In this document: in pieces, positions 5,920-24,189 of the stretch
How the letters are laid out: each line of letters starts with the position of its first letter
How positions within the stretch are numbered: position 1 is the first letter of the stretch
DNA from: Candidatus Krumholzibacteriota bacterium
Lineage (GTDB): Bacteria; Krumholzibacteriota; Krumholzibacteriia; LZORAL124-64-63
Length of the DNA: 30,172 nt
NCBI GenBank assembly: GCA_039714075.1
Contig: JBDLKA010000036.1
Coordinates: 1-30,172 of the forward strand
Direction of reading: 5' to 3'
Notes under the pieces: model-generated
The model's database searches: none
What the model saw: the letters and a program-made list of their open reading frames with translations, nothing else
What the model was told of the DNA's origin: nothing
Made by a program: the position numbers and the translations under genes

Positions 5920-6097
5920 TTCCTTCGGCGAGACTATCCCAGCACCGGAAAAACTGAATATTTGTACCGGCAAACAGGGATTTCTCCCTGGCGTGGCGGG
6001 CCCCTGCCCCTGAATCGCCTGAGCGGCAACAAGTTATCTCGATCTTGATCCCATCTCATTCATCCCGAAAAAAATGCCCTTTTTTTCACAAAGAAGG

Positions 6098-6126
6098 TTG
6101 ACACCCCTGTGGGGCCCGGTTATTCT
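6098..6126 (+). promoter_or_regulatory. Sigma70-type promoter of the dcw operon
   Basis: TTGACA (6098-6103), a 17 bp spacer, then TATTCT (6121-6126). A/T tracts at 6068-6086 resemble an UP element in otherwise GC-rich DNA. Confidence 0.85.
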
Positions 6127-6129
6127 GCG

Positions 6130-6173
6130 GTGGTGATGGGTGGTGAAAAAAAGTGATTTGTGGGGGTTTTTGG
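6130..6173 (+). promoter_or_regulatory. Putative MraZ-binding boxes (10-bp phased GTGG repeats)
   Basis: GTGGTG at 6130 and 6140, GTGGGG at 6160 and TTGG at 6170, with an extra GTGG at 6109. This matches the known ~10-bp periodic GTGG/TGGG MraZ operator upstream of mraZ. Confidence 0.7.
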
Positions 6174-6215
6174 ATCAAAATCGATAGCTGGAGGTCCAGA
6201 CCAGCGGAATTGATG

Positions 6216-6236
6216 GCGGGGGGCCGACGGATCGGC
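6216..6236 (+). repeat. 21-nt leader motif copy 1 (GCGGGGGGCCGACGGATCGGC), hairpin with ACGGAT loop
   Basis: 20/21 identical to 6859-6879. Forms GGCCG-ACGGAT-CGGCC (6222-6237). Confidence 0.85.
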
Positions 6237-6324
6237 CAAAAAACGCAAGGATGCGAACTGACCCGCCATTAATTCCATATTTGGACCGCCGAAATCCCCG
6301 AAACGCCCGGAAAACTGGATAACC

Positions 6325-6801
6325 ATGGAATTCGACCCGACGGCCAACGAAAACCCGGCTCCCGCCTTCACCTTTCACGGGTCCTACACCCGTGCGGTGG
6401 ACGCCAAGGGCCGTTTTGCGTTGCCGTTCCGGTTCCGGCAGGGAGGCTCGGTTCCGGTCGAGGAGAAATACGTGGTCGGCCAGGGGGCGGACGGATCGCT
6501 GAGTCTGCTGCCCTATGCGGTGTGGATCGAGAACTTCAACCGGATGCGCCAGGGCACGCCGGGACCCGAATTGCGGGCCAACATGCGCAAGATGTCCCTG
6601 GCCAGCACCGTGGTCGAGCCCGACAGCCAGGGGCGCGTGGCCGTTACGGTCGAGACCCTGGCCAGGTGCGGGATCACCAAAAAGATCACCGTGGTGGGAA
6701 TGGGTTCCTATATGGAACTGTGGGACCCGGATTCCCTGGACGAGCTGAACGCCGGCGCCGACGAAGTCGATTCCGGTTTCATGGATGAATTCTACCGCTG
6801 A
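6325..6801 (+). CDS. mraZ: Division/cell wall cluster transcriptional repressor MraZ
   Basis: Two AbrB/SpoVT-like repeats (FHGSYTRAVDAKGRFALPFRFR; VEPDSQGRVAV...VVGMGSYMELW). First gene of the dcw cluster. Confidence 0.95.
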   Translation: MEFDPTANENPAPAFTFHGSYTRAVDAKGRFALPFRFRQGGSVPVEEKYVVGQGADGSLSLLPYAVWIENFNRMRQGTPGPELRANMRKMSLASTVVEPDSQGRVAVTVETLARCGITKKITVVGMGSYMELWDPDSLDELNAGADEVDSGFMDEFYR

Positions 6802-6858
6802 CCTGCATTCGGCGGTTGAAGCCCGGCGGCATGGAGGCCGGCCGGATAGAGTCGGGCA

Positions 6859-6879
6859 GCGGGGCGCCGACGGATCGGC
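6859..6879 (+). repeat. 21-nt leader motif copy 2 (GCGGGGCGCCGACGGATCGGC) within a long hairpin 6851-6890
   Basis: Outer stem GTCGGGC/GCCCGAC, a 4-nt bulge, inner stem GGGCGCCG/CGGCGCCC and an ACGGAT loop. Confidence 0.85.
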
Positions 6880-6964
6880 GCCCGCCCGACATCGGTTTCT
6901 GGATTCAAAGGCAAGCATCTTGAGCAAAAGCCCACGGAGGGGCGTCACCAGGGAAGGAGCCCGC

Positions 6965-7378
6965 ATGCCGAGGGAGTTGACCCGGCAGCTCGTCAGGCAC
7001 AGGGACACGGGCAGCCAATTGGAGATCGAAGTCAGACACACCGAAAGGGCTGTCTGGGTCGCTCTCTCGGGGATCCTGGACCGACAGGGGATGCAGAGGG
7101 TCATCAGCCGGGTCGCGCCCCGGCTTGCAAACAGGGGCTGCCGGATCATTCTGGATGGGAAACGGCTGGCCCATCTGGACTACCGGGCGACTCACGGTCT
7201 TCTGGTCTGGAACCGCAAGCTGCGCGACCACCATCATCAACTTTTTCTTCACGGTTGGAGCGATTATCTCAAGGCGATCCTGGTCATGGAAGACTGGGAC
7301 CGTGAACTGGGCGCGATGCCCACCGAACCCTCGACCTGGCGCCTGTTGAGCGGGGCGTCCGCCGAACGAGCACCATGA
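6965..7378 (+). CDS. STAS-domain (anti-anti-sigma-like) protein, 137 aa
   Basis: AAGGAG at 6954-6959 precedes ATG 6965. The sequence pattern VWVALSGILD...RIILDGKRLAHLDYRATHGLL...LFLHGWSDYLKAIL follows the STAS fold. The stop overlaps the rsmH start (ATGA). Confidence 0.75.
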   Translation: MPRELTRQLVRHRDTGSQLEIEVRHTERAVWVALSGILDRQGMQRVISRVAPRLANRGCRIILDGKRLAHLDYRATHGLLVWNRKLRDHHHQLFLHGWSDYLKAILVMEDWDRELGAMPTEPSTWRLLSGASAERAP

Positions 7379-8295
7379 CCGATGTTCCGCACGTCCCGGT
7401 TCTCAAGGACGAGACCCTCGGCCTTCTTCAACCGAGGCAGGGAAAGCGGATCATCGACGGCACTTTCGGCTTCGGGGGACATAGTCTGGCCATGCTTGAG
7501 GCCGGGGCGGAAGTCCTGGGGCTGGACTTGGACGCAGTGGCGGTCGACACCTGCAGACGGATCTCGGGCGACCGCCACGGTCTGAAATGCCGGCGGATCT
7601 CGTTTCGAAACCTGGACGACGCCATGGCGGAGGTCGGTTGGGAAAAAGTGGACGGGGTCCTGCTCGATCTGGGGGTCAGTTCGTTTCAGCTCGATGACCC
7701 GGCCAAGGGATTCAGCTACCGGTCGGACGGCCCGTTGGACCTGCGGTTCAATCAGGACAAAGGTTCGACGGCGGCTGATCTGCTGGCTGCCGCAACCGAG
7801 GCGGAAATCGCCGATCTGATCTGGAAGTGGGGAGAGGAAAGGGCCAGCCGGCGGATCGCCAAAGCCCTGGTCCGGGCCCGCGCCGAAGGGCCGGTCGATA
7901 CGACGGGGAAGTTGCGCCAGGTCATTCAGGGGATCCTGCCCGGAGGGGTGAAACCGGAACCTGTTCTCAGCCGGGTTTTTCAGGCGCTGCGCATCGCCGT
8001 CAACGAGGAACTCGACGCGCTGGCGGAAGTCCTGGCCAAGTTGCCGGGGCTTTTGCGACCCGGGGGAGTCTTTGTGGTGATCTCCTACCACTCACTGGAA
8101 GACAGACTGGTCAAGAGATTCATCGACCGGGAAAAGCGCGACTGTCTGTGCCCGCCGGAAGTGCCGGTTTGTGTCTGCGGGCACCGCAAGGTTCTGAAGG
8201 CCCTGACCCGCAAGGCGGTCCGGGCCTCACAACAGGAGGAAAGGCTGAACAGCAGGGCACGCAGCGCCCGTTTGCGGGCCGCGGAAATCATCTGA
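7375..8295 (+). CDS. rsmH: 16S rRNA m4C1402 methyltransferase RsmH (MraW)
   Basis: HVPVL, DGTFGFGGHS, DLGVSSFQLD...GFSY..DGPLDLRF, FQALRIAVNEEL, ISYHSLEDRLVK and RARSARLR. Confidence 0.97.
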   Translation: MTDVPHVPVLKDETLGLLQPRQGKRIIDGTFGFGGHSLAMLEAGAEVLGLDLDAVAVDTCRRISGDRHGLKCRRISFRNLDDAMAEVGWEKVDGVLLDLGVSSFQLDDPAKGFSYRSDGPLDLRFNQDKGSTAADLLAAATEAEIADLIWKWGEERASRRIAKALVRARAEGPVDTTGKLRQVIQGILPGGVKPEPVLSRVFQALRIAVNEELDALAEVLAKLPGLLRPGGVFVVISYHSLEDRLVKRFIDREKRDCLCPPEVPVCVCGHRKVLKALTRKAVRASQQEERLNSRARSARLRAAEII

Positions 8296-8351
8296 GCTGT
8301 CGGCAGCCGAGGAGGTCCGGAAGGGAGTCCGGACCGGAAAAGAGTTGCAGT

Positions 8352-8882
8352 ATGTGGAAACCCGACCTGAATCTGAAATGCCCCGCGGGCCGGCGGACCC
8401 GCCGCTGCACCCGGACCATGGCCCACCGGCGCCGCCTGGCCGGAGGACAGGTCACCCTGACGGCCCTGGGCGCCCTCTGCCTGGGGCTTCTTCTGGCCGG
8501 TTCCATTTACATATCCAATCAGACCACGGCGTTGCGCACGGAAATCGCGGTCCTTGAGGCCCGCCAGGAGTTTCTCGAGGCGGGTACCGGGCATCTGCTG
8601 ACCCGGTGGAATGCCGCCACCAGCACTGAAGTGATCATTCGCCGGGCCCGGAAGGAACTGGGCCTGGTCGTGCCGGAAGATCCCGGTCTGGTTCTGGTTT
8701 ACGAGGAAGGCGACGGGTCCGATCGCGGGTCCGGTCTCTGGCAGAAATTCCTGAGCCGGTTCGGTGGTGGCACCGCGGTCCAGGCGGCGGAGGATCAGGC
8801 CGGCCTGGTGGTTGGAACGATGGTTTCGTTGACGCCGCGTAACAGCTGGGGAACATCGGTTCCGGGGGGGGACGGGCCATGA
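8352..8882 (+). CDS. ftsL: Cell division protein FtsL-like (single TM + coiled coil); start uncertain (8352 or 8418)
   Basis: Lies between rsmH and ftsI. Basic N-terminus, one TM (LTALGALCLGLLLAGSIYI), a heptad region and IIRRARKELGLVVP. Confidence 0.75.
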   Translation: MWKPDLNLKCPAGRRTRRCTRTMAHRRRLAGGQVTLTALGALCLGLLLAGSIYISNQTTALRTEIAVLEARQEFLEAGTGHLLTRWNAATSTEVIIRRARKELGLVVPEDPGLVLVYEEGDGSDRGSGLWQKFLSRFGGGTAVQAAEDQAGLVVGTMVSLTPRNSWGTSVPGGDGP

Positions 8883-10999
8883 GCAACCGGGGTCATGACG
8901 GCCGGCGGTTCCGGACCCTGCGGATCCTGATGCTGGCGGCGGGAATCGTCCTTGCCGGTCGCATCGTTCACGTCCAGGTTTTTGAACATGAAAAGTATCG
9001 GGCCAAGGCGCTGCGCCAGTGGGAGCGTTTGATTCCCATCAAGGCGGAGCGGGGGAATCTGTACGATCGCCACGGGCAGCCCTTGGCCCTCTCTGTGACA
9101 ACCTGGCGGATCGGGGTCTCCGGTTCATCGGTGGATGACGCCGGCGCCCTGGCGGTATTGCTGTCCGACGTCCTCAAGGGCGACCGGGCCCGCATCAGGA
9201 AAAAGATTTCCCGCGCGGGAAAATCGCATGTGGTTCTGGCTTCCGAAGTCGTGCTGACGTCCGAGCAGAAGTTACGGCTGGAAAAGGATGGGCAGCAGGC
9301 GGTCACCCTGGAACCTTTGCCGTCCCGTCTTTATCCCACCGACGGGGTGGCGGCATCGCTGGTGGGGTTTCACCGGGAAGACCTCGATCAGACGGTGGCC
9401 ACGGGGCTGGAGCACAGCCTGGACGGATACCTGGCGGGGCGGGTCGGCAAGGCGCGCGAAATCAGGACGGCGAATCCCCGGAAGAACAAGGGCCGCATCG
9501 AAGTCGAAAAGGCTGTTCACGGGCAGAGCCTGACCCTGACCCTGGACACCGACCTGCAGATCATCTGCGAAGAAGAGCTTTCCCGGAGCGTCAAGGAGTG
9601 TGGGGCGGTCGGCGGTTCGGTCCTGATTCTGGATCCCGGCAACGGGGATATCCTGGCTTCGGCCAGTTGGCCCTTGCTGAACACCCGTCGCGGACGGCAT
9701 GCGGATCCGGCCATCTGGGTCAACCGCAACTTCACCTACCAGTACGAACCGGGCTCGGTTTTCAAGATCTTTTCCACGGCCTCGCTGCTGCGCAACAGTG
9801 CCATCGATACGGCCACCGTCTTCAATTGCGACAATACCAGGAGTGAAAAGATCTACGTCCGCAACGACCGGGATCATTCCTACGGCAACCTGGCCCTGAT
9901 GGACGCGTTTGCCGTTTCGAGCAACGTATTCTGGGCCAAGGCGGTGGGCAACCTGCGCAAGAGCGAACTGTACCGTGACCTGACCGACTTCGGTTTCGGC
10001 CAGCCTACGACCCTGGCCTACGACGGGCAACCGGCGGGCATCCTTCATCCGGTCACCAGGTGGTCCGGCAGGTCCATGCAGACCATCGCCATAGGGCAGG
10101 AGGTCGCGGTCACGGCCTTGCAACTGGGACTGGCCGTCTGCAGCGTGGCCAACGGCGGCACCCTGTATTCCCCGCGCATGATCAAGGATGTCCGTGACGA
10201 CCGGGGCCGGGTCATCGAGGAGATCCAACCGGTGCCATTGCGCCGGGTCATGGCGCCGCAACTGGCCGAACTGTTGCGCAACGCCATGGGCCGGGTGGTC
10301 CTGGAAGGTACGGGACAAGGGGCGGGAATGGATTGGATCACCACCGGGGGCAAGACCGGCACGGCCCAGAAAAGCGTGGACGGAAAGGGTTTTACGCCGG
10401 GAGCCTACATCGCCAGTTTCGCGGGGATGGTGCCGCTGGAGGACCCCAGGCTTGTCGTCCTGACCGTCCTGGACGAACCCAAGGGTTACCGCCACTACGC
10501 GGCCCAGAGCGCGGTGCCGCTGTTTTCCTCCATCGTCAAGGGGATACGGCGTTCCACCGATTGGCTGACCGACGTTCCCGGGGGACGCACTTCGCCGTTC
10601 ACTCCGCCGGACAAACTGGAAATGGTGGTCGTGCCCGACGTGTTGCATCTGTCGGTGACCAAGGCGGCCCAGAGACTGGGATCGGCCGGCTTCATGGTGG
10701 CCGGAGCGGAAAAAGACGGTGTGGTCATCCAGCAGATCCCCGCCGCGGGCACCCGGTGCCTGCCGGGACAGCAGGTGGAACTGGCGGTGGCCGATCCACG
10801 GGGCGGACGGGGGGCGGAAGCATCCCTGTGTCCTGATTTCACCGGACTGAGCAACCGTCAGGTGAGCAGCCTGGCGGCGCGTCTGGGCATGCCGGTCATC
10901 ATCAAGGGCGTCGGTTATGCCGTTCGCCAGAGTCTGGGGCCGGGCCGGGCCCTCGATGGTCGCCCCATCACCGTCAAGATGGAAACATCGTGGCGTTGA
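8879..10999 (+). CDS. ftsI: Class B penicillin-binding protein FtsI/PBP3 with two C-terminal PASTA domains
   Basis: N-terminal TM and RGNLYDRHG. Catalytic motifs: YEPGSVFK (SxxK), SSN and KTGTAQK. PASTA-like segments VPDVLHLS and CPDFTGLS. Confidence 0.93.
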   Translation: MSNRGHDGRRFRTLRILMLAAGIVLAGRIVHVQVFEHEKYRAKALRQWERLIPIKAERGNLYDRHGQPLALSVTTWRIGVSGSSVDDAGALAVLLSDVLKGDRARIRKKISRAGKSHVVLASEVVLTSEQKLRLEKDGQQAVTLEPLPSRLYPTDGVAASLVGFHREDLDQTVATGLEHSLDGYLAGRVGKAREIRTANPRKNKGRIEVEKAVHGQSLTLTLDTDLQIICEEELSRSVKECGAVGGSVLILDPGNGDILASASWPLLNTRRGRHADPAIWVNRNFTYQYEPGSVFKIFSTASLLRNSAIDTATVFNCDNTRSEKIYVRNDRDHSYGNLALMDAFAVSSNVFWAKAVGNLRKSELYRDLTDFGFGQPTTLAYDGQPAGILHPVTRWSGRSMQTIAIGQEVAVTALQLGLAVCSVANGGTLYSPRMIKDVRDDRGRVIEEIQPVPLRRVMAPQLAELLRNAMGRVVLEGTGQGAGMDWITTGGKTGTAQKSVDGKGFTPGAYIASFAGMVPLEDPRLVVLTVLDEPKGYRHYAAQSAVPLFSSIVKGIRRSTDWLTDVPGGRTSPFTPPDKLEMVVVPDVLHLSVTKAAQRLGSAGFMVAGAEKDGVVIQQIPAAGTRCLPGQQVELAVADPRGGRGAEASLCPDFTGLSNRQVSSLAARLGMPVIIKGVGYAVRQSLGPGRALDGRPITVKMETSWR

Positions 11000-12537
11000 C
11001 CTTCGGCAATCTTTGTTCCGGTCTTCAGTGCCGCGAGTTGACGGGCAATCAGGAAATCCGGATCGAAAACATCACTGCGGACTCGCGCCGGGCGGGCCCC
11101 GCCACCGTGTTCGTGGCGGTGCCGGGAACCGGCGGCGACGGGCATGATTACGTGGCGGATGTCGTGGCCCGCGGTTGCCGGGCCCTGGTTATCCAAACGG
11201 ACCGCCGGGAGACGGTTTCCCTTCTGTTGAAGGATTATGCCGGAGCGACGGCGGTGGTGGATCGGACCCGCCCGGTGCCCGCCCTGCTGGGCAGGATTCT
11301 CCACGGCCAGCCGGATCTCGAACTGTGGACAGCCGCGGTGACGGGAACCAACGGAAAAACCACGGTCTCGTTCCTGCTGCGTGAAATGCTGAACCGGCTG
11401 CGGGGACCCTGCGGCCTGTTGGGAACCGTGGCCTACGCGGATGGTTCGACCACCGAACCGGCCCCTTTGACCACTCCGCCAGGGACGGTGTTCTACAGTT
11501 GGCTGGCGCGCATGGTGGCCAACGGCTGCCGCAGCGTGGCCATGGAACTTTCCTCCCACGGACTCGATCAGGAAAGATGCGCCGGTCTGGGATTGGACGT
11601 GGCGATCATGACGAACATGGGCCGCGACCACCTGGACTATCACGACAGCCCGGAGGATTACCTGGCGGCCAAAGCCCTCATCATGAAGCTCCTGCGCAAA
11701 GGCGCGATCGGGGAAGGCACGGGGCGGCCGGGAGTTCTGGTGCTCAACGGCGACGACCCGCAACTGGCGGGACTGGATACATCCGGCGTGGAGACGGTGC
11801 GATTTTCCTGCCGCCCGGATCAGGAACAGGCCGACCGGGCGGATCTGCGTGTATCGGCGGCCCATCTGGAACTGGAGGGCACGAGGCTGGAACTGGACTG
11901 GCGCGGTCAGGGCCTGAAGATCAAGAGTCCCCTGGTGGGCCGTTTCAACGTGGAGAACCTGACCGCGGCCCTGGCCGGAGGTATCGCCCTGGGACTGGAT
12001 GCCGAGGCCTGCGCCGCGGCCCTGGGCGGTGTGCCGCAGGTTCCCGGACGGCTGGAGAGATTTGTCCTGCCCAACGGCGGTCTGGCCGTGGTCGATTACG
12101 CCCACACCCACGACGCGTTGGCGGCGGTACTGAGGACCTGCGACGAGTTGAAGGCCGGTCGTCTGCTGGTGGTGTTCGGTTGCGGAGGAGACCGGGACCG
12201 CGGCAAGCGCCCCTTGATGGGGCGCGTCGCGGCGCAGGAAAGCGATCTGGCCTGGATCACCTCGGACAACCCGCGCAGCGAGGAACCCGGAGGCATCTGC
12301 CGGGATATCCTGGCGGGGTTCGATGAGGTCGCCGATCCCCGGGCGCGGGCGCGGGCCATGGTGATCGACCGGCGCGAGGCCATTGAAAAGGCCTTGGCCG
12401 AAACGGGGGCGGGCGACATCCTGGTGGTGGCCGGCAAGGGTCACGAAGACTACCAGCTGATCGGCGGCCGCACGATCGACCTGGACGACCGGGTCATTAT
12501 CCGGGAATGGATGGAACGGAACCGGGACTATGGGTAG
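10990..12537 (+). CDS. murE: UDP-MurNAc-L-Ala-D-Glu--meso-DAP ligase MurE
   Basis: VTGTNGKTT, MELSSH, DHLDYH, VPGRLE, VDYAHTHD, FGCGGDRDRGKRPLMG, DNPR (the meso-DAP specificity motif) and AGKGHEDYQ. Confidence 0.97.
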   Translation: MALTFGNLCSGLQCRELTGNQEIRIENITADSRRAGPATVFVAVPGTGGDGHDYVADVVARGCRALVIQTDRRETVSLLLKDYAGATAVVDRTRPVPALLGRILHGQPDLELWTAAVTGTNGKTTVSFLLREMLNRLRGPCGLLGTVAYADGSTTEPAPLTTPPGTVFYSWLARMVANGCRSVAMELSSHGLDQERCAGLGLDVAIMTNMGRDHLDYHDSPEDYLAAKALIMKLLRKGAIGEGTGRPGVLVLNGDDPQLAGLDTSGVETVRFSCRPDQEQADRADLRVSAAHLELEGTRLELDWRGQGLKIKSPLVGRFNVENLTAALAGGIALGLDAEACAAALGGVPQVPGRLERFVLPNGGLAVVDYAHTHDALAAVLRTCDELKAGRLLVVFGCGGDRDRGKRPLMGRVAAQESDLAWITSDNPRSEEPGGICRDILAGFDEVADPRARARAMVIDRREAIEKALAETGAGDILVVAGKGHEDYQLIGGRTIDLDDRVIIREWMERNRDYG

Positions 12538-13990: not shown

Positions 13991-14003
13991 AGGCAGGGAG
14001 GCC

Positions 14004-15092
14004 ATGTTTTACCATCTGCTTTATCCGCTGAGCGACTACTGGTCCATCCTCAACGTATTCAAGTACATCACCTTTCGTTCCTCCTATGCCACGGTCACCT
14101 CGCTGCTGATCTGTTTCATATTCGGCAACTGGGTCATCGGCAAGCTGGAGGCCCTGCAGATCGGCGAGACGATAGATTCCGACGGGCCGGAACATCATCA
14201 AAAGAAATCCGGCACCCCGACCATGGGCGGGGTGCTGGTGCTGGCGGCGATCATCATTCCGACCCTGCTGTGGGCGGACCTGACCAACCGGTACGTGCAG
14301 CTGGCCCTGGTGGGTACCCTGTGGATGGGCGCCATCGGTTTCGTGGACGATTATCTGAAAGTGGTCAAGAAGCGTCCCAAGGGCATGATCGGCCGCTTCA
14401 AGCTGGTCGGGCAGATCAGCTACGGCCTGATCCTGGGCGGGGTCCTGGTTTTCGGAGGCGACGACGGGTCGGTCCTGACCAGCACCAGCGTGCCTTTCCT
14501 CAAGGATGTCCTGATCAACTGGGGCTGGCTGTATGTTCCGTTGGTCATCCTGGTGGTGACCGGGGCGAGCAACGCCGTAAACCTGGCCGACGGCCTGGAC
14601 GGACTGGCCATAGGCTTGAGCTCGCTGGCCTTCGCCGGCTTTGCCGTAATCGCCTATCTCAGCGGCCACAGCGTGTTCGCGGAATACCTGAACCTTCTTT
14701 ATCTGCCCGAGGTCGGCGAACTGACCGTCTATTGCGCCGCGGTGGTGGGGGCGGGCATCGGTTTCCTCTGGTTCAACGCCCATCCCGCGCGGATCTTCAT
14801 GGGCGACACCGGCAGCCTGGCCCTGGGCGGCGCCCTGGGCACGGTGGCCATCATGGTGAAAAAGGAATTCCTGCTCGTCGTCATCGGCGGGATTTTCGTG
14901 GCCGAGGCGTTGTCGGTCATGCTGCAGGTCACCTGGTTCCGGCGAACCGGGGGCAAGAGGCTGTTTCGCATGGCGCCCCTGCACCACCATTTCGAGTTGA
15001 CCGGGTGGTCGGAAACCCAGGTCGTGGTGCGATTCTGGATTATCGGCATCCTGTTGCTGCTGCTGGGTATGTCATCCCTGAAGCTTCAGTAG
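14004..15092 (+). CDS. mraY: Phospho-N-acetylmuramoyl-pentapeptide transferase MraY
   Basis: Starts MFYHLLY at ATG 14004 after AGGGAGG. Motifs KKSGTPTMGG, GFVDDYLK, NAVNLADGLDGL, FMGDTGS and MAPLHHHFE. Confidence 0.97.
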   Translation: MFYHLLYPLSDYWSILNVFKYITFRSSYATVTSLLICFIFGNWVIGKLEALQIGETIDSDGPEHHQKKSGTPTMGGVLVLAAIIIPTLLWADLTNRYVQLALVGTLWMGAIGFVDDYLKVVKKRPKGMIGRFKLVGQISYGLILGGVLVFGGDDGSVLTSTSVPFLKDVLINWGWLYVPLVILVVTGASNAVNLADGLDGLAIGLSSLAFAGFAVIAYLSGHSVFAEYLNLLYLPEVGELTVYCAAVVGAGIGFLWFNAHPARIFMGDTGSLALGGALGTVAIMVKKEFLLVVIGGIFVAEALSVMLQVTWFRRTGGKRLFRMAPLHHHFELTGWSETQVVVRFWIIGILLLLLGMSSLKLQ

Positions 15093-15102
15093 AGAGCGGG
15101 CC

Positions 15103-16527
15103 ATGCGCACATTCGCGGACAAAATCTGTTGGGTCGTGGGGCTGGCCCGCAGCGGCTGCGCCGCCGGCGGCCTGCTGCGCCGGCAGGGCGCGACGGTCGT
15201 GGGCATCGACGACGCCGACGAGGCGGCCGTCCGGCTCCGCTGGCGCAACGAGAACCTGGAACATCTGGCGGAATCCGGTTTCGATGAACTCGTTACCGGA
15301 GGTGGCCGGCCCGCTTCGGCGCCGGACCTGGTGGTGGTCAGTCCGGGAGTGCCGCTGGATCAGGAGCGTTTGACCGCCCTGCCGGCCGCGGTTCCGGTCA
15401 TCGGCGAGCTCGAACTGGGGGCCCGTTTCTGCCGGGCCGAAATGGTGGCCATCACCGGCACCAACGGCAAGACCACCACGACCGAACTGGTGGCCCACCT
15501 GGGGCGCCGGGCCGGGCGCCGGGCCGAGGCCCTGGGCAACGTCGGGCGGCCGCTGTGTCTGGTGGCCGAGGAACTCGAACCCGGTGATCTGGCGGTTCTG
15601 GAAGTGTCCAGCTTCCAGTTGGAGTCGGTGAAGGATTTCCAGCCCCGGGTCGGGGCGGTGCTGAACCTGGCCCCCGACCATCTGGACCGCTATCAGGATC
15701 TGGCGGGCTATTACCGGGCCAAGCAGGTTCTGGCCGATATTCTGCCTCCGGAGGGCGTGTTCGTCACCTGGACCGAATGTCCCGAGGCCCTGGGTTGGCC
15801 GACCGCCGCCCGCAGGATCCTGTTTGGAAGGGAAGACGGCGGCGCGCAGGTCTTTTACCGGGATGATTGCCTCTGGGCAGATGTCCGCGGCCGTCAGCAG
15901 CCCCTGGTGGAGGCCGGGGCGCTGGCTCTCCAGTCGCCCCCCAACCTGTTGAACGCCCTGGCCGGCGCCGCGATCGGCCTGTCTCTCGACCTGGAAGTCG
16001 AGGCGGTGTCTGCGGGGCTGTGCGATTTTCCGGGCCTGCCCCATCGCCACCAACTGGTGGCGCGGCGGGGCGGGGTAAAGTTCGTGAACGATACCAAGGC
16101 CACCAATGTCCACGCGGTCTGCGCGGGGTTGGCGGGTTTTCCCGAGCCGGTGATCCTGATTGCCGGCGGCAGCGGCAAGGGGGAGGACTACACGCCCCTG
16201 CGCCAGGTAATGGGCATGGTCCGGCATGTGGTCCTGATCGGCGAGGAAGGTCCTGCCATCGGACGCGCCCTGTCGCCGGAGGTGCCCACGAGTGTGGCGG
16301 GCTCCATGGACGAAGCCGTCGCATTCGGGGCGGAATTGGCTGGGGAATTGTTCGCGGAATTGGCTGGGGAACCGGGCGCCGGACCGGCCGCGACCGGCGA
16401 GGAAGCCGGTGTGGTGGTCCTGCTCAGCCCCGCCTGTGCCAGCTTCGACATGTTCGCCAACTACGGCAAGCGCGGCGAGGCCTTTACCGCCGCAGCGATC
16501 AAGGCCGGGGCGGACCCGGTGGAGTGA
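15103..16527 (+). CDS. murD: UDP-MurNAc-L-Ala--D-Glu ligase MurD
   Basis: GLARSG, SPGVP, ITGTNGKTTT, LEVSSFQL, DHLDRY, NDTKATN and LLSPACASFDMF. Confidence 0.97.
   Translation: MRTFADKICWVVGLARSGCAAGGLLRRQGATVVGIDDADEAAVRLRWRNENLEHLAESGFDELVTGGGRPASAPDLVVVSPGVPLDQERLTALPAAVPVIGELELGARFCRAEMVAITGTNGKTTTTELVAHLGRRAGRRAEALGNVGRPLCLVAEELEPGDLAVLEVSSFQLESVKDFQPRVGAVLNLAPDHLDRYQDLAGYYRAKQVLADILPPEGVFVTWTECPEALGWPTAARRILFGREDGGAQVFYRDDCLWADVRGRQQPLVEAGALALQSPPNLLNALAGAAIGLSLDLEVEAVSAGLCDFPGLPHRHQLVARRGGVKFVNDTKATNVHAVCAGLAGFPEPVILIAGGSGKGEDYTPLRQVMGMVRHVVLIGEEGPAIGRALSPEVPTSVAGSMDEAVAFGAELAGELFAELAGEPGAGPAATGEEAGVVVLLSPACASFDMFANYGKRGEAFTAAAIKAGADPVE
16330..16371 (+). repeat. In-frame 24-nt-period direct repeat (GCGGAATTGGCTGGGGAA x2) in murD
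   Basis: Identical 18-mers at 16330-16347 and 16354-16371, each encoding AELAGE. Confidence 0.9.
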
Positions 16528-16598
16528 CGTGAAAACCCGAGGCCCGGGCCGGAAGGGCCGGTTGGGTTCAGGAACCAACAGACCAGGGAGGGTCGTGG

Positions 16599-17780
16599 AT
16601 GAACAGACGCTTGAGAGGTTTCACGGCCAGCATGGAACACTCGGACCGCCTGCTGCTCGCGTCGGTGGGTGTTCTCCTGTTCATCGGGATATTCGTGGTC
16701 TACGGAGCCGGCAGCTACAACCGCGCGGCCCATTCCTCCCCCCTGGGACAGCACTTCATCGTCGCCAAGCACCTGTTCATGATCGGTGTGGGCCTGGTGA
16801 TGATGATCGGCCTGATGAACCTGGACTACCGCTGGTTCCGGCATCACTGGTTCAACTGGGGCGGGCTCGGCGTCACCTACGGTCTGGTGGCCTGGACCCT
16901 GCTCATCGCCCGCCACGATCCCGACGGGGACCGGATCATCAACCGCTGGGTGACCATCGCGGGGTTTTCCTTCCAGCCGGTGGAGATGGCCAAGCTGGCC
17001 ATGATCTTTTTTCTCGCCGAACGGCTGACCAACCAGGGCGCCGGCCGCAATCCGACCCCGCGGCAACTGGGCCGGGCCCTGCTCCTGGGACCGCTGCCCC
17101 TGTTGGTCCTTCTGGTCCTGCAGCCCAATTTCGGCAATGCCATGGTGATCGGCGGCGTGACCCTGGTCCTGTTGTACGTGGCCGGGGTGTCCGGGAAATG
17201 GCTGCTCAGGTTTTTGGCCGCCCTGCCGCTTCTGGCGGGCATCTGCTATCTGGCCATTCCCAAGATCCACCGCCGGGTGGACAAGCTCATCGACGGGTTC
17301 CGGGAGGGGGATTTCGGTTACCAGGTGAACCAGTCCCTGATCGGACTGGGGGGACCGGGTTGGAAGGGCGCCGGCATCGGCCAGAGCCACAATAAATTTT
17401 CCTTCCTGCCGGAATCCCACACGGACTTCGCCTTTTCGATGCTGGGCGAGGAGTGGGGCCTGTTCGGAACCCTGATGGTGGTGGCCATGTTGATCCTGTT
17501 CGCCTGGCGGGGATTCGGCATCGCCGCCCGGGCCGCCGATCCTTTCGGAAAAGTGGTGGCCGCCGGCCTGACCACGGGCATCGCCATATATGGCGTTGCC
17601 AACATCGCCATGGTTACTGGTATATTCCCCGTGGTGGGGGTGCCCCTGCCTTTTGTCAGCTTTGGCGGGACGGCCATGATCGCGGCCCTGGCCTCGGTCG
17701 GCATCCTGTTGAATATCGAACGCGGCAGCCGTTCCTATCAGGTCTGGAAACGGCGCTGGGACCGGAGTGGAACCGCATGA
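16599..17780 (+). CDS. ftsW: SEDS peptidoglycan glycosyltransferase FtsW
   Basis: Multi-TM protein with RW...FSFQPVEMAK, LQPNFG, YQVNQSLI, FLPESHTDF, GEEWG and PLPFVSFGG. Lies between murD and murG. Confidence 0.95.
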   Translation: MNRRLRGFTASMEHSDRLLLASVGVLLFIGIFVVYGAGSYNRAAHSSPLGQHFIVAKHLFMIGVGLVMMIGLMNLDYRWFRHHWFNWGGLGVTYGLVAWTLLIARHDPDGDRIINRWVTIAGFSFQPVEMAKLAMIFFLAERLTNQGAGRNPTPRQLGRALLLGPLPLLVLLVLQPNFGNAMVIGGVTLVLLYVAGVSGKWLLRFLAALPLLAGICYLAIPKIHRRVDKLIDGFREGDFGYQVNQSLIGLGGPGWKGAGIGQSHNKFSFLPESHTDFAFSMLGEEWGLFGTLMVVAMLILFAWRGFGIAARAADPFGKVVAAGLTTGIAIYGVANIAMVTGIFPVVGVPLPFVSFGGTAMIAALASVGILLNIERGSRSYQVWKRRWDRSGTA

Positions 17781-18925
17781 TCCCGAACACGCCGGCAGAT
17801 CCCGCTTCCGGAAACGGAAAGGCAGGGGTCCATCCGCCGGTCCGTGTTCTGATCACCGGAGGCGGCACAGGAGGCCATGTCTATCCGGGACTGGCGGTGG
17901 CCGGCGCCCTGGAAAAGCTCGCGCCGGGGTCCGACATCCGGTTCGCGGGAACATCGCGCGGTATCGAATCGGTTCTGGTGCCCCGGGCCGGTTATCGTTT
18001 CACGACCTTGCCCGCCTCGGGATTGCGTGGTCTCGGCGGCCGGGCCCGGTTTCTGTTTCTGTTCAATTTTTTCCTGGGATTTTTCCGCAGCGTGCTGATG
18101 TTTCTGGTGTGGCGGCCCCGGGTCGTGCTCGGTACCGGAGGCTATGTCAGCGCGCCGGTGATGCTGGCGGCCAGGTCGCTGGGCATTCCCTGCGCACTGC
18201 AGGAACAGAACGCGATCCCCGGTTCGACGAACCGCCTGGTGGCACGGTGGGCACGCCGGATCTATCTGGGGTTCCCCGGAGCGGCCCGCTATTTCAAGGC
18301 CGACCGCTGCCGGGAAACAGGCAACCCGGTGCGGTCCGGATTCCTGACCGCAGCCGGTGAAGGCAACCCGGTCGCTGCCGGCGGAGTGAAGCACCTTTTG
18401 GTTTTCGGCGGCAGCCGCGGCGCCGCGACCCTCAACGCCGCGGTCGTCGAGGCGGCTGCCGCCTGGGGCGGGCGCGATGACCTGTCGATCCTGATCCAGA
18501 CCGGTCCCGCCGCTCACGCGTCCGTGGCCGCGGCGTTTGACGCGGCGTCATCCGAGCGGATCAGGGTCGTACCTTATATCGAGGACATGGCCACGGAACT
18601 GAAACGGGCCGACCTCGTGGTATCAAGGGCGGGGGCCATGACCCTGGCCGAACTCCAGTGCGTCGGCCGGCCGGCGGTGCTGGTCCCGTTTCCCTTTGCC
18701 ACGGACGACCACCAGCTGCGCAACGCCGAGGATTGCGCCGCGGCCGGCGCGGCGGTGGTCCTGAAGGATGACCAGTGCGACGGAATGACCCTGGTCGGCC
18801 TGGTGGACGAGTTGCTGGCCGACCCGTCCCGCCTACAGGGCATGGCCGCGGCGGCCGCGGGCCTGGCCCGGCCCCGGGCCGCGGTCGCTATCGCCGAAGA
18901 TCTGTTGGAACTTGCCGCGGGGTGA
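17777..18925 (+). CDS. murG: Undecaprenyl-PP-MurNAc-pentapeptide GlcNAc transferase MurG
   Basis: GGGTGGHVYPG, GTGGYVS, EQNAIPG, TGNPVR, GGSRGA, SRAGA and HQLRNA. ATG 17777 overlaps the ftsW stop. Confidence 0.96.
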   Translation: MIPNTPADPASGNGKAGVHPPVRVLITGGGTGGHVYPGLAVAGALEKLAPGSDIRFAGTSRGIESVLVPRAGYRFTTLPASGLRGLGGRARFLFLFNFFLGFFRSVLMFLVWRPRVVLGTGGYVSAPVMLAARSLGIPCALQEQNAIPGSTNRLVARWARRIYLGFPGAARYFKADRCRETGNPVRSGFLTAAGEGNPVAAGGVKHLLVFGGSRGAATLNAAVVEAAAAWGGRDDLSILIQTGPAAHASVAAAFDAASSERIRVVPYIEDMATELKRADLVVSRAGAMTLAELQCVGRPAVLVPFPFATDDHQLRNAEDCAAAGAAVVLKDDQCDGMTLVGLVDELLADPSRLQGMAAAAAGLARPRAAVAIAEDLLELAAG

Positions 18926-18965
18926 TCCCCGGCGACCGCTCCGTTCAAGAGAGAGGATTGGATTC

Positions 18966-20423
18966 TTGTCCCGCCAGAAGAACCCCGAATTGCCCAAAGA
19001 CATGTTGCGCGGCATGTTCCGCGACATGAGCCACAAGATGTTCCGCAACACCCGGCATATCCATCTGGTGGCCATCGGCGGGGTGGGCATGAGCGGCATC
19101 GCCGAAGTCCTGCTGAATCTCGGCTTCACCGTCAGCGGCAGCGATCTGCATGAAACGCAGGTCACCGAACGGCTGGTCGGATTGGGGGCGCGGGTTTTCA
19201 CCGGCCATGACCCGGCCAACATCACCGGTGCCGATGTCGTGGTGCGGTCCTCGGCCGTGACCGAGGCCAACAGCGAAGTGACCGCGGCGCGCAGCCGCCG
19301 GATTCCGGTCATCCGCCGCGCGGAAATGCTGGCGGAACTCATGCGGCTCAAATACGGGATCGCTGTGGCGGGCTCCCACGGCAAGACGACCACGACCAGC
19401 CTGGTGGCCGCGGTCATGGCGGCCGGCGAACTGGACCCGACCGTCATCGTGGGCGGCCAGGTCCGGGCCATGGGTTCCAACGCGGTACTGGGTGCGGGGG
19501 ACCACCTGGTGGCCGAGGCCGACGAAAGCGACGGCACCTTCCTGCACCTGACGCCCACCATTGCCGTGGTGACGAACATCGACCACGAACACGTGGATTT
19601 CTATCCCGACATGGACTCCCTGCGGGACGCGTTCCGGGAGTTCCTTCTGCGGATCCCCTTCTACGGCGCCTGTGTCCTGTGTGTCGACGACCCTGAAGTC
19701 CGGGCCCTGCTGCCGAACCTGGACCGCAAGATCATTACCTACGGCCTGAGCGAAGGGGCACAGGTGCGGTCGGATCCGGGCATGGTCGTCACGGGTGACT
19801 TCGGGCAGGAGGCCGTGGTCTGGGCCCATGGCCAGGAGCTGGGGACCCTGCGTTTGCAGCTGCGCGGCCGGCACAATCTCCAGAACGCGCTGGCGGCCGT
19901 GGCGGTGGGCCTGGAACTGGGTGTGCCGTTCGAGCGGATCGCCTCCGGTTTGGCCGACAGCAGCGGTGTGGGACGGCGTTGCGAGGAGCACGGGGAACAC
20001 GGCGGCGTGCAGGTGGTGGATGACTACGGGCATCATCCCACCGAGGTGCTGGCCATCATGCAGGTGGCCCACGAATTCGAACGTCCGGTGGCCGTCCTCT
20101 TCCAGCCCCACCGGTTTTCCCGCACGGAAATGTTCGCCCGGGAATTCGCCGACGCCCTGGCTTCGGCAACCACCGTGGGGCTGCTGCCGGTCTATCCGGC
20201 GGGCGAGGATCCCCTGCCCGGGATCGACAGCGGTTTGATCGCCCGCCATCTGCAGGACAAGGGGCTGCGCCGGGTGAAGGTGCTCTCCGGTCCCGAAGCG
20301 ATCGTTTCCTGGCTTGACGACGAGGTGCCCGCCGGCAGCCTGGTGCTCACCCTCGGAGCGGGGGATGTCGGCCGCCGCGTGGCGGAAATCTGCAGCCATC
20401 TGGACGAAAGATCCACGCGGTGA
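18966..20423 (+). CDS. murC: UDP-MurNAc--L-Ala ligase MurC; start uncertain (TTG 18966 with SD, or ATG 19002/19014/19026/19038)
   Basis: HIHLVAIGGVGMSGIA, VAGSHGKTTTTS, AEADESDG, DDYGHHPTE, FQPHRFSRT and LGAGDV. Confidence 0.95.
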   Translation: MSRQKNPELPKDMLRGMFRDMSHKMFRNTRHIHLVAIGGVGMSGIAEVLLNLGFTVSGSDLHETQVTERLVGLGARVFTGHDPANITGADVVVRSSAVTEANSEVTAARSRRIPVIRRAEMLAELMRLKYGIAVAGSHGKTTTTSLVAAVMAAGELDPTVIVGGQVRAMGSNAVLGAGDHLVAEADESDGTFLHLTPTIAVVTNIDHEHVDFYPDMDSLRDAFREFLLRIPFYGACVLCVDDPEVRALLPNLDRKIITYGLSEGAQVRSDPGMVVTGDFGQEAVVWAHGQELGTLRLQLRGRHNLQNALAAVAVGLELGVPFERIASGLADSSGVGRRCEEHGEHGGVQVVDDYGHHPTEVLAIMQVAHEFERPVAVLFQPHRFSRTEMFAREFADALASATTVGLLPVYPAGEDPLPGIDSGLIARHLQDKGLRRVKVLSGPEAIVSWLDDEVPAGSLVLTLGAGDVGRRVAEICSHLDERSTR

Positions 20424-21211
20424 GCCGCTTTGCCGAGCGACGAACGCCGCGGCGTTCCCGGGTCGGCATGGTGCTGAGGCTGGCCCTCGGTTTTCTGGTT
20501 CTGGCAGGGGTCGGTCTCGGCTTCCGGTGGGCCCTGACCTCGTCCACCTTCGCCGTGGCCCGGGTGGAGTCCGGCGCCTATCGTTTCACTTCCCGGGCGG
20601 AACTCGAGGAAGCCTTCTCCGAGTTCCTCGGCCACAACATCTGGACCCTTTCCACCGACGAGATCGCCGTGCGCCTGGAGACCCTGCCCTGGGTGCGGGA
20701 CATGCGGGTGCGGCGGTCGTTGCCCAACACCATCGAAGTGGACTTCCGCGAGTGGCGGCCCCTGTGGCAGGTTTCGGAAATCAAGGGCGCCCACGCCGGC
20801 GGCCTGCGGCCCCTGGTCATGATCGAGGACGGGCGGATCCTGGAGTTCCCCGGCCACGTGGTCATGGCCGGTTTGCCGGTGCTGGTCGGAGTGCCCGCCG
20901 TCCGCGAGGGTGGCGACGGGGTTCTGCAGGTGGAAAAAAAACACATGAAAGAAATCATGGAACTGATTTCCGCCATGGAGGATGCGGGGATCGAATCCGT
21001 TAGTCCGGTTGATTTTGTGGTTGCCCGGAACGAAGGATACGCTATCGTCCTGCAGGACAAACGAGGCATCCTGATGGTCGGCAGGGAGGAATTCTCCGAT
21101 CGTCTGAATCGCTACATGACGGCCCGTGACTATCTGGATCCCGGCCTGGAAATCGATCTGCGATTCAAGGACAGGCTGACGGTCAAGGAATCTCCGGCCC
21201 TTGTTGATTGA
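20420..21211 (+). CDS. ftsQ: Cell division protein FtsQ/DivIB
   Basis: Single N-terminal TM, POTRA domain (LETLPWVRDMRVRRSLPNTIEV..REWRP) and C-terminal IDLRF. Lies before ftsA. Confidence 0.92.
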   Translation: MSRFAERRTPRRSRVGMVLRLALGFLVLAGVGLGFRWALTSSTFAVARVESGAYRFTSRAELEEAFSEFLGHNIWTLSTDEIAVRLETLPWVRDMRVRRSLPNTIEVDFREWRPLWQVSEIKGAHAGGLRPLVMIEDGRILEFPGHVVMAGLPVLVGVPAVREGGDGVLQVEKKHMKEIMELISAMEDAGIESVSPVDFVVARNEGYAIVLQDKRGILMVGREEFSDRLNRYMTARDYLDPGLEIDLRFKDRLTVKESPALVD

Positions 21212-21260
21212 GGAACGCCCGGTAGCGGGGTTACGGAAAAGTTTCGCGAATGGAGTCGGC

Positions 21261-22508
21261 ATGAGTCAGGGAAGACTGATTGTCGCTTGTGATTTCGGCA
21301 CGACCACCTTTCGTGCCCTCGTCACGGAGACCACCGAAAGCGGCGACCTCGAGATTCTCGGGTTCGCCCAGGAAAAAGTCGAAGGATTCCTGGACGGGGA
21401 TTTCATCGACCTGGGCAAGGGCAGCCGCTGCATCGCCCGGACCATGCGGCAACTCGAAGCCGATTCCGATATCTACGTCACCGGGTTCACCTACAATATT
21501 TCCGGCTCCCATCTGCACAGCGTGCGCGCGACCGCCCAGGTTCCCATCGGACCCGGTCCCCGGCCCATCCGCGAATCCGACCTCGAGGAGGCGCGCCGGC
21601 GGGCGCGGTCCATGTCCATTCCCTTCGACAACAAGATCCTGGCCGTCACGCCGGTGGAATACGCGGTGGACAGGGTGCGCGGCATCGTGGACCCGGTCGG
21701 CCGGATGGGCAGCCAACTCGAGATGCAGGCCCACCTGATCACCGGCTCGCGAAGCGTTCTGCACAACGTGGAAAACGCCATCGAAACGGCGAAGTACAAA
21801 CCGCTCGGGGAAGAGGTGGACGTCCTGGCGACAGGGCGGTCATTGCTGCGGCCGGTGGATCTCGAGCAGGGTGTCATCCTGGTCGACGTCGGGGGACTGG
21901 CCACCAACTGGGCCGTTTACCGCAAGGGCGCCATCGTGGCCAACGGGGTGGTCCCGCTGGGTGGGGAACACCTGACGGCGGACCTGGCCCACGGCCTGCG
22001 CATCTCCACCGCGGAGGCCGACCGGATCAAGGCCGAGCGCGGTGTCGTTCTGCGCAGCCTGGTGGACGAGGTGTCCATCCAGGTCCTGTTCGAGGAGGAG
22101 CGCCCCGAACAGACCCCCGGTTTGATCGCCGCCATTCTGGAGCCCCGCGTGGAGGAAATCTTCACCTACGTCAAGAACGATTTCGGCGACCTGCGCGAAT
22201 TGGCCGGTCTCGGGGCGGGCGTTGTCCTGACCGGCGGCGGCAGCCTGTGCCGGGGCACCCGCCAACTCTGTGAAGAGGTCTTCGATCTGCCGGTTCAAAG
22301 GCGCCATCTGCCCGACGGGCTGATCGGCGCGGAGCGTCTGCCTGCGGGCCAGTGGGCTTCGGTCCTGGGATTGAGCATGTGGGCGGCCCAGGATGCCGAA
22401 GGATTCACCGAAAATGAGCCGGGAAACGGAAGTACCGGTTTTTTGAACAGGTTACGGGGAATCTTCCGGAGCAGTGATGACGATGACGCGATGGCTGCGG
22501 AGGCCTGA
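21261..22508 (+). CDS. ftsA: Cell division protein FtsA (divergent)
   Basis: DFGTT, EYAVD...DPVGRMG, GVILVDVGG, GGEHLTADLA..L....AEADRIK, EPRVEEI, GVVLTGGGS and C-terminal amphipathic FLNRLRGIF. SD GGAG precedes ATG 21261. Confidence 0.92.
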   Translation: MSQGRLIVACDFGTTTFRALVTETTESGDLEILGFAQEKVEGFLDGDFIDLGKGSRCIARTMRQLEADSDIYVTGFTYNISGSHLHSVRATAQVPIGPGPRPIRESDLEEARRRARSMSIPFDNKILAVTPVEYAVDRVRGIVDPVGRMGSQLEMQAHLITGSRSVLHNVENAIETAKYKPLGEEVDVLATGRSLLRPVDLEQGVILVDVGGLATNWAVYRKGAIVANGVVPLGGEHLTADLAHGLRISTAEADRIKAERGVVLRSLVDEVSIQVLFEEERPEQTPGLIAAILEPRVEEIFTYVKNDFGDLRELAGLGAGVVLTGGGSLCRGTRQLCEEVFDLPVQRRHLPDGLIGAERLPAGQWASVLGLSMWAAQDAEGFTENEPGNGSTGFLNRLRGIFRSSDDDDAMAAEA

Positions 22509-22574
22509 TGATCCCGAAATCGGTGCGCGGTGCCGGAAATCGGCAATAAATGTAAAAAACAGGCAAAATAGTGC

Positions 22575-22603
22575 TTGGCGGCCGTTGATTCATGTGCTAG
22601 TTA
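22575..22603 (+). promoter_or_regulatory. Possible internal promoter for ftsZ
   Basis: AT-rich 153-bp spacer containing TTGGCG-17bp-TAGTTA with TG at the extended -10 position. The -10 is imperfect. Confidence 0.3.
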
Positions 22604-22661
22604 AGTGGAAGACACATTTTTTGCAGGGTCAGTTGCCCAACTCAAGGAGGAGGCGGGTATC

Positions 22662-24188: not shown

Positions 24189-24189
24189 T

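Follow-up and report, generated by a model that had tools for sequence, protein, structure and literature searches.

Proteins of the CsrA/RsmE type bind an ANGGAN hexaloop presented on a short stem, contacting the A and the GGA and leaving N variable (PMC7652899, PMC3791407). One CsrA dimer can bridge two such sites 10-63 nt apart (PMC7652899), and repression is usually achieved via coverage of the Shine-Dalgarno (SD) sequence (PMC7652899, PMC3791407, PMC13443453). In this study we analyzed hairpins of the same kind in the mRNA of the division and cell wall (dcw) cluster of a Candidatus Krumholzibacteriota bacterium, contained in a DNA stretch of 30,172 nt (assembly GCA_039714075.1, contig JBDLKA010000036.1, positions 1 to 30,172 of the forward strand; hereafter the window). 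What is known of CsrA regulons comes mainly from Proteobacteria and Firmicutes, where they are centred on carbon metabolism, motility and virulence; in E. coli, the CsrA sites mostly show less regularity and are not known to form a series along the successive cistrons of an operon.

The RsmE/RsmA sites of hcnA and RsmZ in Pseudomonas resemble those of the window in that a short stem carries an ANGGAN hexaloop, in some cases on the SD sequence, and in having the same fixed and free positions (PMC7652899, PMC3791407). In particular, hairpin 2 of RsmZ carries an AAGGAU loop on a G-rich stem (PMC3791407), like the AAGGAT loop at position 6247. The hairpins considered here differ from the Pseudomonas sites in that they belong to the dcw operon of an uncultured phylum, some of their stems are 8-15 bp long, and their binder is putative. 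About eleven of them are under selection in the dcw mRNA of this lineage, where both conservation and covariation were observed. We lean, if only slightly, towards the view that they are binding sites for a dimer of the CsrA/RsmA family.

Excess of ANGGAN hairpins over chance

A preliminary description of this DNA, made from its letters, listed 12 perfect stems closing an ANGGAN loop and proposed that a CsrA-like protein gates translation of the division genes through them. Each of the 12 strings occurs once in the window at the position assigned to it, and eight of them indeed share the pattern C-ANGGAN-G; the list was nevertheless incomplete, the hairpins at 6951, 21264, 7283 and 7401 having been missed. 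The plus strand of the window contains 124 ANGGAN hexamers, which are closed by at least two perfect Watson-Crick pairs in 23 cases, by at least three in 17 and by at least four in 8; for the 92 hexamers of the minus strand the respective numbers are 8, 1 and 0. Comparison with 1000 dinucleotide-preserving shuffles bore out the excess: stems of at least 3 bp had a mean of 2.80 (sd 1.65, maximum 9) and 0 of 1000 shuffles reached 17, and stems of at least 4 bp had a mean of 0.73 (sd 0.82, maximum 4), none reaching the observed 8. The raw number of ANGGAN hexamers is ordinary, at least 124 being present in 685 of the 1000 shuffles.

The excess belongs to this particular loop. Among the 256 loop classes of the form XNYZWN, ANGGAN ranks first, with 13.7% closed by at least 3 bp against 2.2% overall (30146 hexaloop positions). 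A scan of the possible placements of GGA within loops showed an excess only for the arrangement with two bases ahead of the triplet and a single base behind it (NN-GGA-N). In the 719 nt of non-coding dcw sequence (5' untranslated region, or 5'UTR, and spacers), 11 of 13 ANGGAN hexamers form loops on stems of 3 bp or more, and six of the seven hexaloop hairpins with at least 4 bp have an ANGGAN loop.

To compare relatives, we used MraY as a query and scanned one genome per species, which yielded 80 dcw loci. The in-group comprises 12 close relatives (L001-L012) with 76-95% MraY identity, mostly labelled Candidatus Krumholzibacteriia or Krumholzibacteriota; two loci, L013 (63% identity) and L024 (60%), are distant relatives, and the outgroup is formed by 66 loci, mostly from Pseudomonadota. 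The fraction of closed ANGGAN hexamers on the plus strand is 97/819 in the in-group and 67/2955 in the outgroup, and on the minus strand it is 10/471 and 51/2065, respectively. The eight lowest binomial P values among the 80 loci all belong to the in-group, and the feature is absent from L013 and L024. The favoured first base of the loop is A both in the window (8/14) and in the relatives (41/61), the outgroups being flat. ANGGAN hexamers placed as SD sequences (4-13 nt before the start of a long open reading frame, or ORF) are closed in 5/16 cases in the window, 27/159 in the in-group and 15/590 in the outgroup; since this fraction is high only in the lineage, the excess is not an SD artefact. 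In the flanking non-dcw sequence of the window and in-group (33 kb), 4/89 hexamers are closed, as compared with 110/854 within dcw, a sample too small to single out the dcw cluster genome-wide.

A GC-rich genome (the G+C content of the window is 62-69%), SD sequences and codon choice could produce such hairpins by chance, and 3-bp stems are weak. Some individual hairpins are indeed explained in this way. The hairpin TTC-ATGGAT-GAA at 6778..6789 (+), in the last mraZ codons, follows the peptide F-M-D-E-F, encoded with common codons, and is kept only in L002 and L003; it is probably a coding by-product. At the ftsA SD, which is itself real, the hairpin CGA-ATGGAG-TCG (21247..21258, +) occurs in none of the seven in-group loci covering the site and is probably fortuitous, so that neither of these two, both listed originally, was retained in the set. 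The hairpin at 7283 was rejected as an RNA element, being made of common codons of a conserved V-M-E-D, and those at 3684 and 24260 are not conserved. The hairpin at 7401, perhaps another that follows conserved amino acids, uses the minor codons GTT and CTC and is lost in L007-L011. For the set as a whole, the chance explanation is refuted and retains next to no probability, given the shuffles, the background level of the minus strand and of the 66 outgroup loci, the enclosure of most non-coding ANGGAN hexamers in loops, and the compensatory changes in the stems; it holds only for the individual hairpins named above. The hairpin set is far beyond chance and lineage-specific.

Conservation of the hairpins along the dcw operon

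The spacer between mraZ and the following gene for a STAS-domain protein is 163 nt long in the window and 160-218 nt in relatives, without preservation of frame. Since its length is not a multiple of three across relatives, it is non-coding, despite a window ORF open from 6785. In the spacer alignment, with a mean identity of 61%, the A, G, G and A of the loops at 6831 (hairpin A), 6870 (hairpin B) and 6934 (hairpin C) are invariant in 9/9 sequences, and N2 is variable (T/A/C, C/A and C/T/A, respectively); the rows were not selected on these loops. Hairpin B is present in the minimum-free-energy fold of the spacer, and four of its pairs are changed on both sides (in L007, L008, L009 and L010). 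Hairpin C occurs in 10/10 sequences, and the distance from its loop to that of hairpin D, on the SD of the STAS gene, is 19-21 nt in all ten. Hairpin D had been taken for a 2-bp CC-AGGGAA-GG at 6948; the overlapping GGG-AAGGAG-CCC at 6951 is the better reading. In L011, the most distant relative with the feature, both stems at the STAS start are replaced (TCACTC-ATGGAG-GAGTGA and GCGGA-AAGGAG-TCCGC), and the loops are kept, 21 nt apart. On this point the comparison with relatives fits the CsrA/RsmA-type reading of the preliminary description: the loop A and GGA are fixed, N is variable and the stems covary.

The STAS gene, situated between mraZ and rsmH, encodes a product of 137 aa with a Pfam STAS_2 match and a weak match to the anti-sigma-factor-antagonist superfamily, and its stop codon overlaps the rsmH ATG (ATGA). 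Its orthologs are present in L001-L003 and L005-L011. The first ~850 nt of the transcript carry seven ANGGAN hairpins, four of them in the 163-nt spacer and one, at the mraZ 3' end, non-conserved. The STAS gene is an unusual dcw member and the cistron with the densest GGA hairpins. The division genes had been proposed as the targets; this holds for several dcw SDs, but the most densely targeted gene is not a canonical division gene. In L013 an ORF occupies the same slot (3245-3641) and has no hairpins; it was judged STAS-like from its translation, not from a family search.

The two hairpins of the mraZ leader follow a sigma-70-like promoter with a TTGACA conserved among relatives, the position of which places them within a 5'UTR of ~190 nt, counted from a presumed transcription start near 6133. 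They lie 73-98 nt upstream of the mraZ start codon and form, together with an outer stem, a Y-shaped element. Its consensus structure (RNAalifold, 9 sequences) has 21 pairs, 5 of them changed on both sides, and 91.5% of alignment cells are paired, as compared with 21-44% when the partners are slid. The minimum-free-energy fold of the 5'UTR includes the element (z = -4.0; 0/200 shuffles fold as well). In relatives the loop of hairpin 1 reads ACGGAT, ATGGAT, AAGGAT, AAGGAA or ATGGAG, varying at N2 and N6, and its stem is 6 bp in L007, L008 and L010. Within the leader alignment A1 the invariance of hairpin 1 is by construction, because the rows were chosen by a regular expression on this hairpin, and the unbiased parts of A1 are hairpin 2 and the outer stem only. 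Hairpin 2 has the form GCC-AAGGAN-GGC in L008 and L010, with two pairs changed on both sides, and the loop spacing is 20 nt in 8/8 sequences with both hairpins. A covariance model of the Y element (R1) gives confident matches only in its 9 training loci and none in L011-L080; at E up to 1 it weakly matches the STAS-leader hairpins of L006 (20.3 bits, E 0.018) and of the window (15.3 bits, E 0.58), as well as the minus strand of L001 (16 bits, E 0.36).

Two further observations were made in this region. Directly downstream of the promoter-like site, positions 6127-6167 (+) are occupied by GTGG-rich direct repeats, GGTGGTGA twice and then GTGATTTGTGGGG, which are conserved in relatives and presumably resemble MraZ operator boxes. 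In most relatives the mraZ start codon opens an ANGGAN hexamer (6325-6330 in the window), which reads ATGGAA, ATGGAT or ATGGAC; no stem flanks it, and it possibly reflects just Met-Glu/Asp coding.

Further along the operon, conservation is uneven. The ftsZ SD hairpin is found in every in-group locus reaching the site (L001, L002, L003, L004, L006, L008 and L011, the last with an ATGGAG loop). A hairpin within the first ftsA codons, termed here +4, has its GGA 18 nt after the SD GGA (21252) and is present in 6/7 in-group loci covering the site, and in L008 it takes the form GCC-AGGGAA-GGC via two synonymous, compensatory changes. The codons that build it are seldom used (AGT makes up 7% of Ser codons, GGA 17% of Gly codons and AGA 3% of Arg codons), and we take them as maintaining the hairpin. 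The mraY SD hairpin is conserved in L001-L006 (6/12 in-group loci), and that of ftsW, situated in an otherwise unalignable spacer, in L001, L004, L005 and L006 (4/8 in-group loci covering the site); in L002 the latter reads GACC-AGGAAG-GGTC. In the rsmH-ftsL spacer (8296-8351), the stem is kept in most relatives, and its loop is ANGGAN only in L001 and L003 (2/10 loci covering the site), with other loops in L002, L005 and L006. At this site structure seems to matter more than GGA, and judging from the alignments the ftsL hairpin is a weak member of the set. As had been noted originally, no hairpin is found at the overlapping starts or at murD. By the same alignments the core candidate sites are the leader Y element, the four mraZ-STAS hairpins, the ftsZ SD hairpin and the ftsA +4 hairpin, with mraY, ftsW and ftsL less deeply conserved. 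The ftsA-ftsZ spacer is 153 nt long, and its last ~60 nt (22600-22661, +) hardly vary among L001-L006, unlike in L008; this stretch may represent an internal promoter of ftsZ or another RNA element, upstream of the SD hairpin.

Such hairpins might work without a dedicated binder, the stems presenting the SD within a loop so as to assist or adjust the binding of the 30S subunit and the upstream hairpins stabilizing or punctuating the polycistronic mRNA (processing, 5' protection, leaky attenuation). Five sites are SDs; the 15-bp GC-rich stem of hairpin B is followed 5-7 nt later by a short T-rich run in several relatives; and stems persist when the loop is altered, both in the ftsL spacer and at mraY in L008, where the GGC/GCC stem encloses a loop without GGA. 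Nevertheless, we consider this explanation quite unlikely. The non-SD loops contain GGAT or GGAA as often as GGAG, so that only 3 nt are complementary to the standard anti-SD, and the explanation accounts neither for the selected A at loop position 1 and the exact hexaloop geometry nor for the fixed 20-nt pairs. The outgroup dcw clusters have the same SD and stability needs but no such hairpins. Finally, the three terminator-like sites called in 5800-8500 include none at a GGA hairpin, and hairpin B has no T-run that would make it a terminator.

The window carries a dcw cluster of Candidatus Krumholzibacteriia, and a Pfam search of its proteins found the cluster complete on the plus strand (Table 1).

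Table 1. Positions of the mraZ promoter, the GGA hairpins and the dcw genes in the window
Feature	Position	Strand	Description
Sigma-70-like promoter of mraZ	6098..6126	+	TTGACA, 17 nt spacer, TATTCT; 10/12 matches in consensus scan
Y-shaped mraZ-leader element	6208..6274	+	Outer stem P1 (6208-6221 with 6262-6274) around two ANGGAN hairpins
Leader hairpin 1	6222..6237	+	GGCCG-ACGGAT-CGGCC
Leader hairpin 2	6244..6255	+	CGC-AAGGAT-GCG; GGA 20 nt after hairpin 1 GGA
mraZ	6325-6801	+	Pfam
Hairpin A	6823..6845	+	CCGG.CGGC-ATGGAG-GCCG.CCGG
Hairpin B (long)	6851..6890	+	GTCGGGC..GGGCGCCG-ACGGAT-CGGCGCCC-GCCCGAC; 15-16 bp, ANGGAT cap
Hairpin C	6930..6943	+	GCCC-ACGGAG-GGGC; 20 nt upstream of the SD hairpin
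Hairpin D (STAS SD)	6951..6962	+	GGG-AAGGAG-CCC; STAS ATG at 6965
STAS-domain gene	6965-7378	+	Pfam; ATG at 6965
rsmH	7375-8295	+	Pfam
rsmH-ftsL hairpin	8314..8335	+	GGTCCGGA-AGGGAG-TCCGGACC; loop ends 25 nt before ftsL ATG (8352)
ftsL	8352-8882	+	Pfam; ATG at 8352
ftsI, murE, murF	between ftsL and mraY	+	Pfam
mraY SD hairpin	13992..14003	+	GGC-AGGGAG-GCC; directly before ATG (14004)
mraY	14004-15092	+	Pfam
murD	between mraY and ftsW	+	Pfam
ftsW SD hairpin	16581..16594	+	GACC-AGGGAG-GGTC; ATG at 16599
ftsW	16599-17780	+	Pfam
murG, murC, ftsQ	between ftsW and ftsA	+	Pfam
ftsA	21261-22508	+	Pfam
ftsA +4 hairpin	21264..21277	+	AGTC-AGGGAA-GACT; codons 2-6
ftsZ SD hairpin	22641..22652	+	CTC-AAGGAG-GAG; ATG at 22662
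ftsZ	22662-24188	+	Pfam

The FtsZ protein is long (508 aa; 22662-24188, +), and the ORF of a TPR protein (24046-25890, +) is open for ~140 nt within the ftsZ 3' end. At the other end of the window, the protein encoded at 41-2203 (+) contains a propeller repeat of the two-component-regulator type and, as a weak match that stays below the Pfam cut-off, a type IX secretion C-terminal sorting domain; this combination is consistent with a relative of the FCB group.

Candidate reader of the hairpins

The hairpins share with CsrA sites a GGA in the ANGGAN hexaloop of a short hairpin and a constrained A and GGA around a free N. A variable base between the invariant A and the invariant GGA speaks for a protein as the reader rather than for base pairing. 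Pairs of sites with a spacing inside the published range for dimer bridging are found in the leader (20 nt), at the STAS start (19-21 nt) and at ftsA (18 nt). The original placement of the hairpins on initiation regions is correct for STAS, mraY, ftsW, ftsA and ftsZ, where the SD is overlapped; the two hairpins of the mraZ leader, hairpins A and B and the ftsL hairpin lie off these regions. Given this agreement in the sequence-level features of CsrA sites, we take the hairpins as putative CsrA-family binding sites. The proposal of CsrA/RsmA-type gating is partly supported, by the features of the sites themselves; the gating of translation, along with the binder, repression as its direction and the physiological signal, is what we infer from them. 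CsrA homologs are reported in Krumholzibacteriota (PMC13443453), and flagellar genes are reported in one metagenome-assembled genome of this phylum (PMC10936416). The one supplementary file of the former paper has Krumholzibacteriota as figure labels only, and the five supplements of the latter contain no csrA, fliW, K03563 or K13626.

Several points weigh against a CsrA-family reader, or reduce the strength of the case. A tblastn search with E. coli K-12 CsrA found no csrA in the window and the 80 loci (1,397,542 bases; best E 0.38), the rest of the genomes lying outside this search. The CsrA proteins of Krumholzibacteriota show a low frequency of 'predicted functional' members when judged by a model whose training set was hag repression in B. 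subtilis, with the authors' caution that a low predicted frequency does not mean inactive proteins (PMC13443453). Ligands selected by SELEX mostly have no more than four contiguous pairs, and binding may be hampered where a stem is very stable (PMC7652899); several stems of the window are long (8 bp, 15 bp). Half of the core, best-conserved sites (the leader pair and hairpins A and B) are far from any start codon and off any initiation region. The stems of the ftsZ, mraY and ftsW SD hairpins never covary, so that their GGAG could be kept simply as an SD. The mraZ-STAS spacer folds no more stably than its shuffles (z = -1.16; 26/200 as good). Covariation counts are small, the alignments having 9-10 related sequences and the whole comparison 9-13, and two to four of the 12 hairpins listed originally are probably coincidences.

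Another trans-acting reader could be involved, either a different RNA-binding protein of the phylum or a small RNA with UCC-containing loops kissing the GGA loops. The failure to find csrA in the loci searched and the mostly 'non-functional' prediction for Krumholzibacteriota CsrAs in the B. subtilis-based model (PMC13443453) are in agreement with this possibility, and conservation proves that the loop is selected but does not tell which factor reads it. We regard it as unlikely, if worth keeping in mind. The invariant A, free base and invariant GGA reproduce the published contact signature of CsrA/RsmE (PMC7652899). For a small RNA, the free base within the motif fits contiguous pairing poorly. 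As for another protein, we know of no other family with such specificity.

Under the CsrA-family reading, a dimer of the CsrA type would bridge the paired sites 18-21 nt apart, namely the loop pair of the Y element in the mraZ leader, hairpins C and D where the STAS gene starts and, at ftsA, the SD together with the +4 hairpin; at mraY, ftsW and ftsZ the SD would be covered by a single site. A dimer bound to an SD would block the 30S subunit and so reduce translation of the genes that lack translational coupling, and repression of the STAS gene would pass to rsmH via the ATGA overlap. The upstream sites (the leader pair and hairpins A and B) could serve as high-affinity anchors or act on mRNA stability. 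Under such a scheme, this lineage would control its cell division at the post-transcriptional level.

A bolder version, to which we attach little probability, is that the seven early hairpins form an mRNA-borne platform for several CsrA dimers, or that the reader is a new protein family converged on ANGGAN. A platform of this kind would titrate and sense free CsrA and would couple the STAS partner-switching protein, together with mraY, ftsW, ftsA and ftsZ, to the CsrA state, which could reflect, for example, flagellar assembly via FliW or carbon status. It would amount to a checkpoint of division acting after transcription, for which no bacterial precedent is known.

Comparison with known regulatory systems

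In agreement with the preliminary description, a full-text search, with subscription journals outside its coverage, found no publication that describes CsrA-type control for a dcw operon or for this lineage. No Rfam family reaches its gathering score in the window. A permissive Rfam scan of 5900-8500 (E up to 10) gave five weak unrelated matches (best E 0.15), among which there is no Csr/Rsm family and neither the mraW motif nor TwoAYGGAY. The mraZ-leader Y element and the multi-hairpin mraZ-STAS spacer are thus two new cis-regulatory RNA motifs without an Rfam match. If the series is indeed of the CsrA type, it would be the first case that we could find of post-transcriptional control across a whole dcw operon, in a host from a candidate phylum without a cultured member and with a STAS gene within the dcw cluster as the most heavily targeted cistron.

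The two-hairpin layout of the STAS start is similar to that of the B. subtilis hag leader, the target of the CsrA-FliW system; however, hag is a single gene for flagellin, whereas the sites described here are distributed along an operon of division genes. The pairs, 18-21 nt apart, can also be compared with E. coli glgC and other dual-site CsrA targets, where a dimer bridges 10-63 nt (PMC7652899). The dense packing of many GGA hairpins recalls the sponge RNAs CsrB, RsmY and RsmZ, from which the present hairpins differ in being embedded in an mRNA; the scans called no promoter-like site within the mraZ-STAS spacer and no terminator-like site at the hairpins. MraZ acts on the same operon, but by repression at the DNA level, whereas the hairpins would act at the RNA level, downstream of the promoter. 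The mechanism envisaged here, in which a GGA hairpin is combined with occlusion of the SD, is of a well-known kind; the novelty lies in the target operon, in the lineage and in the two RNA motifs.

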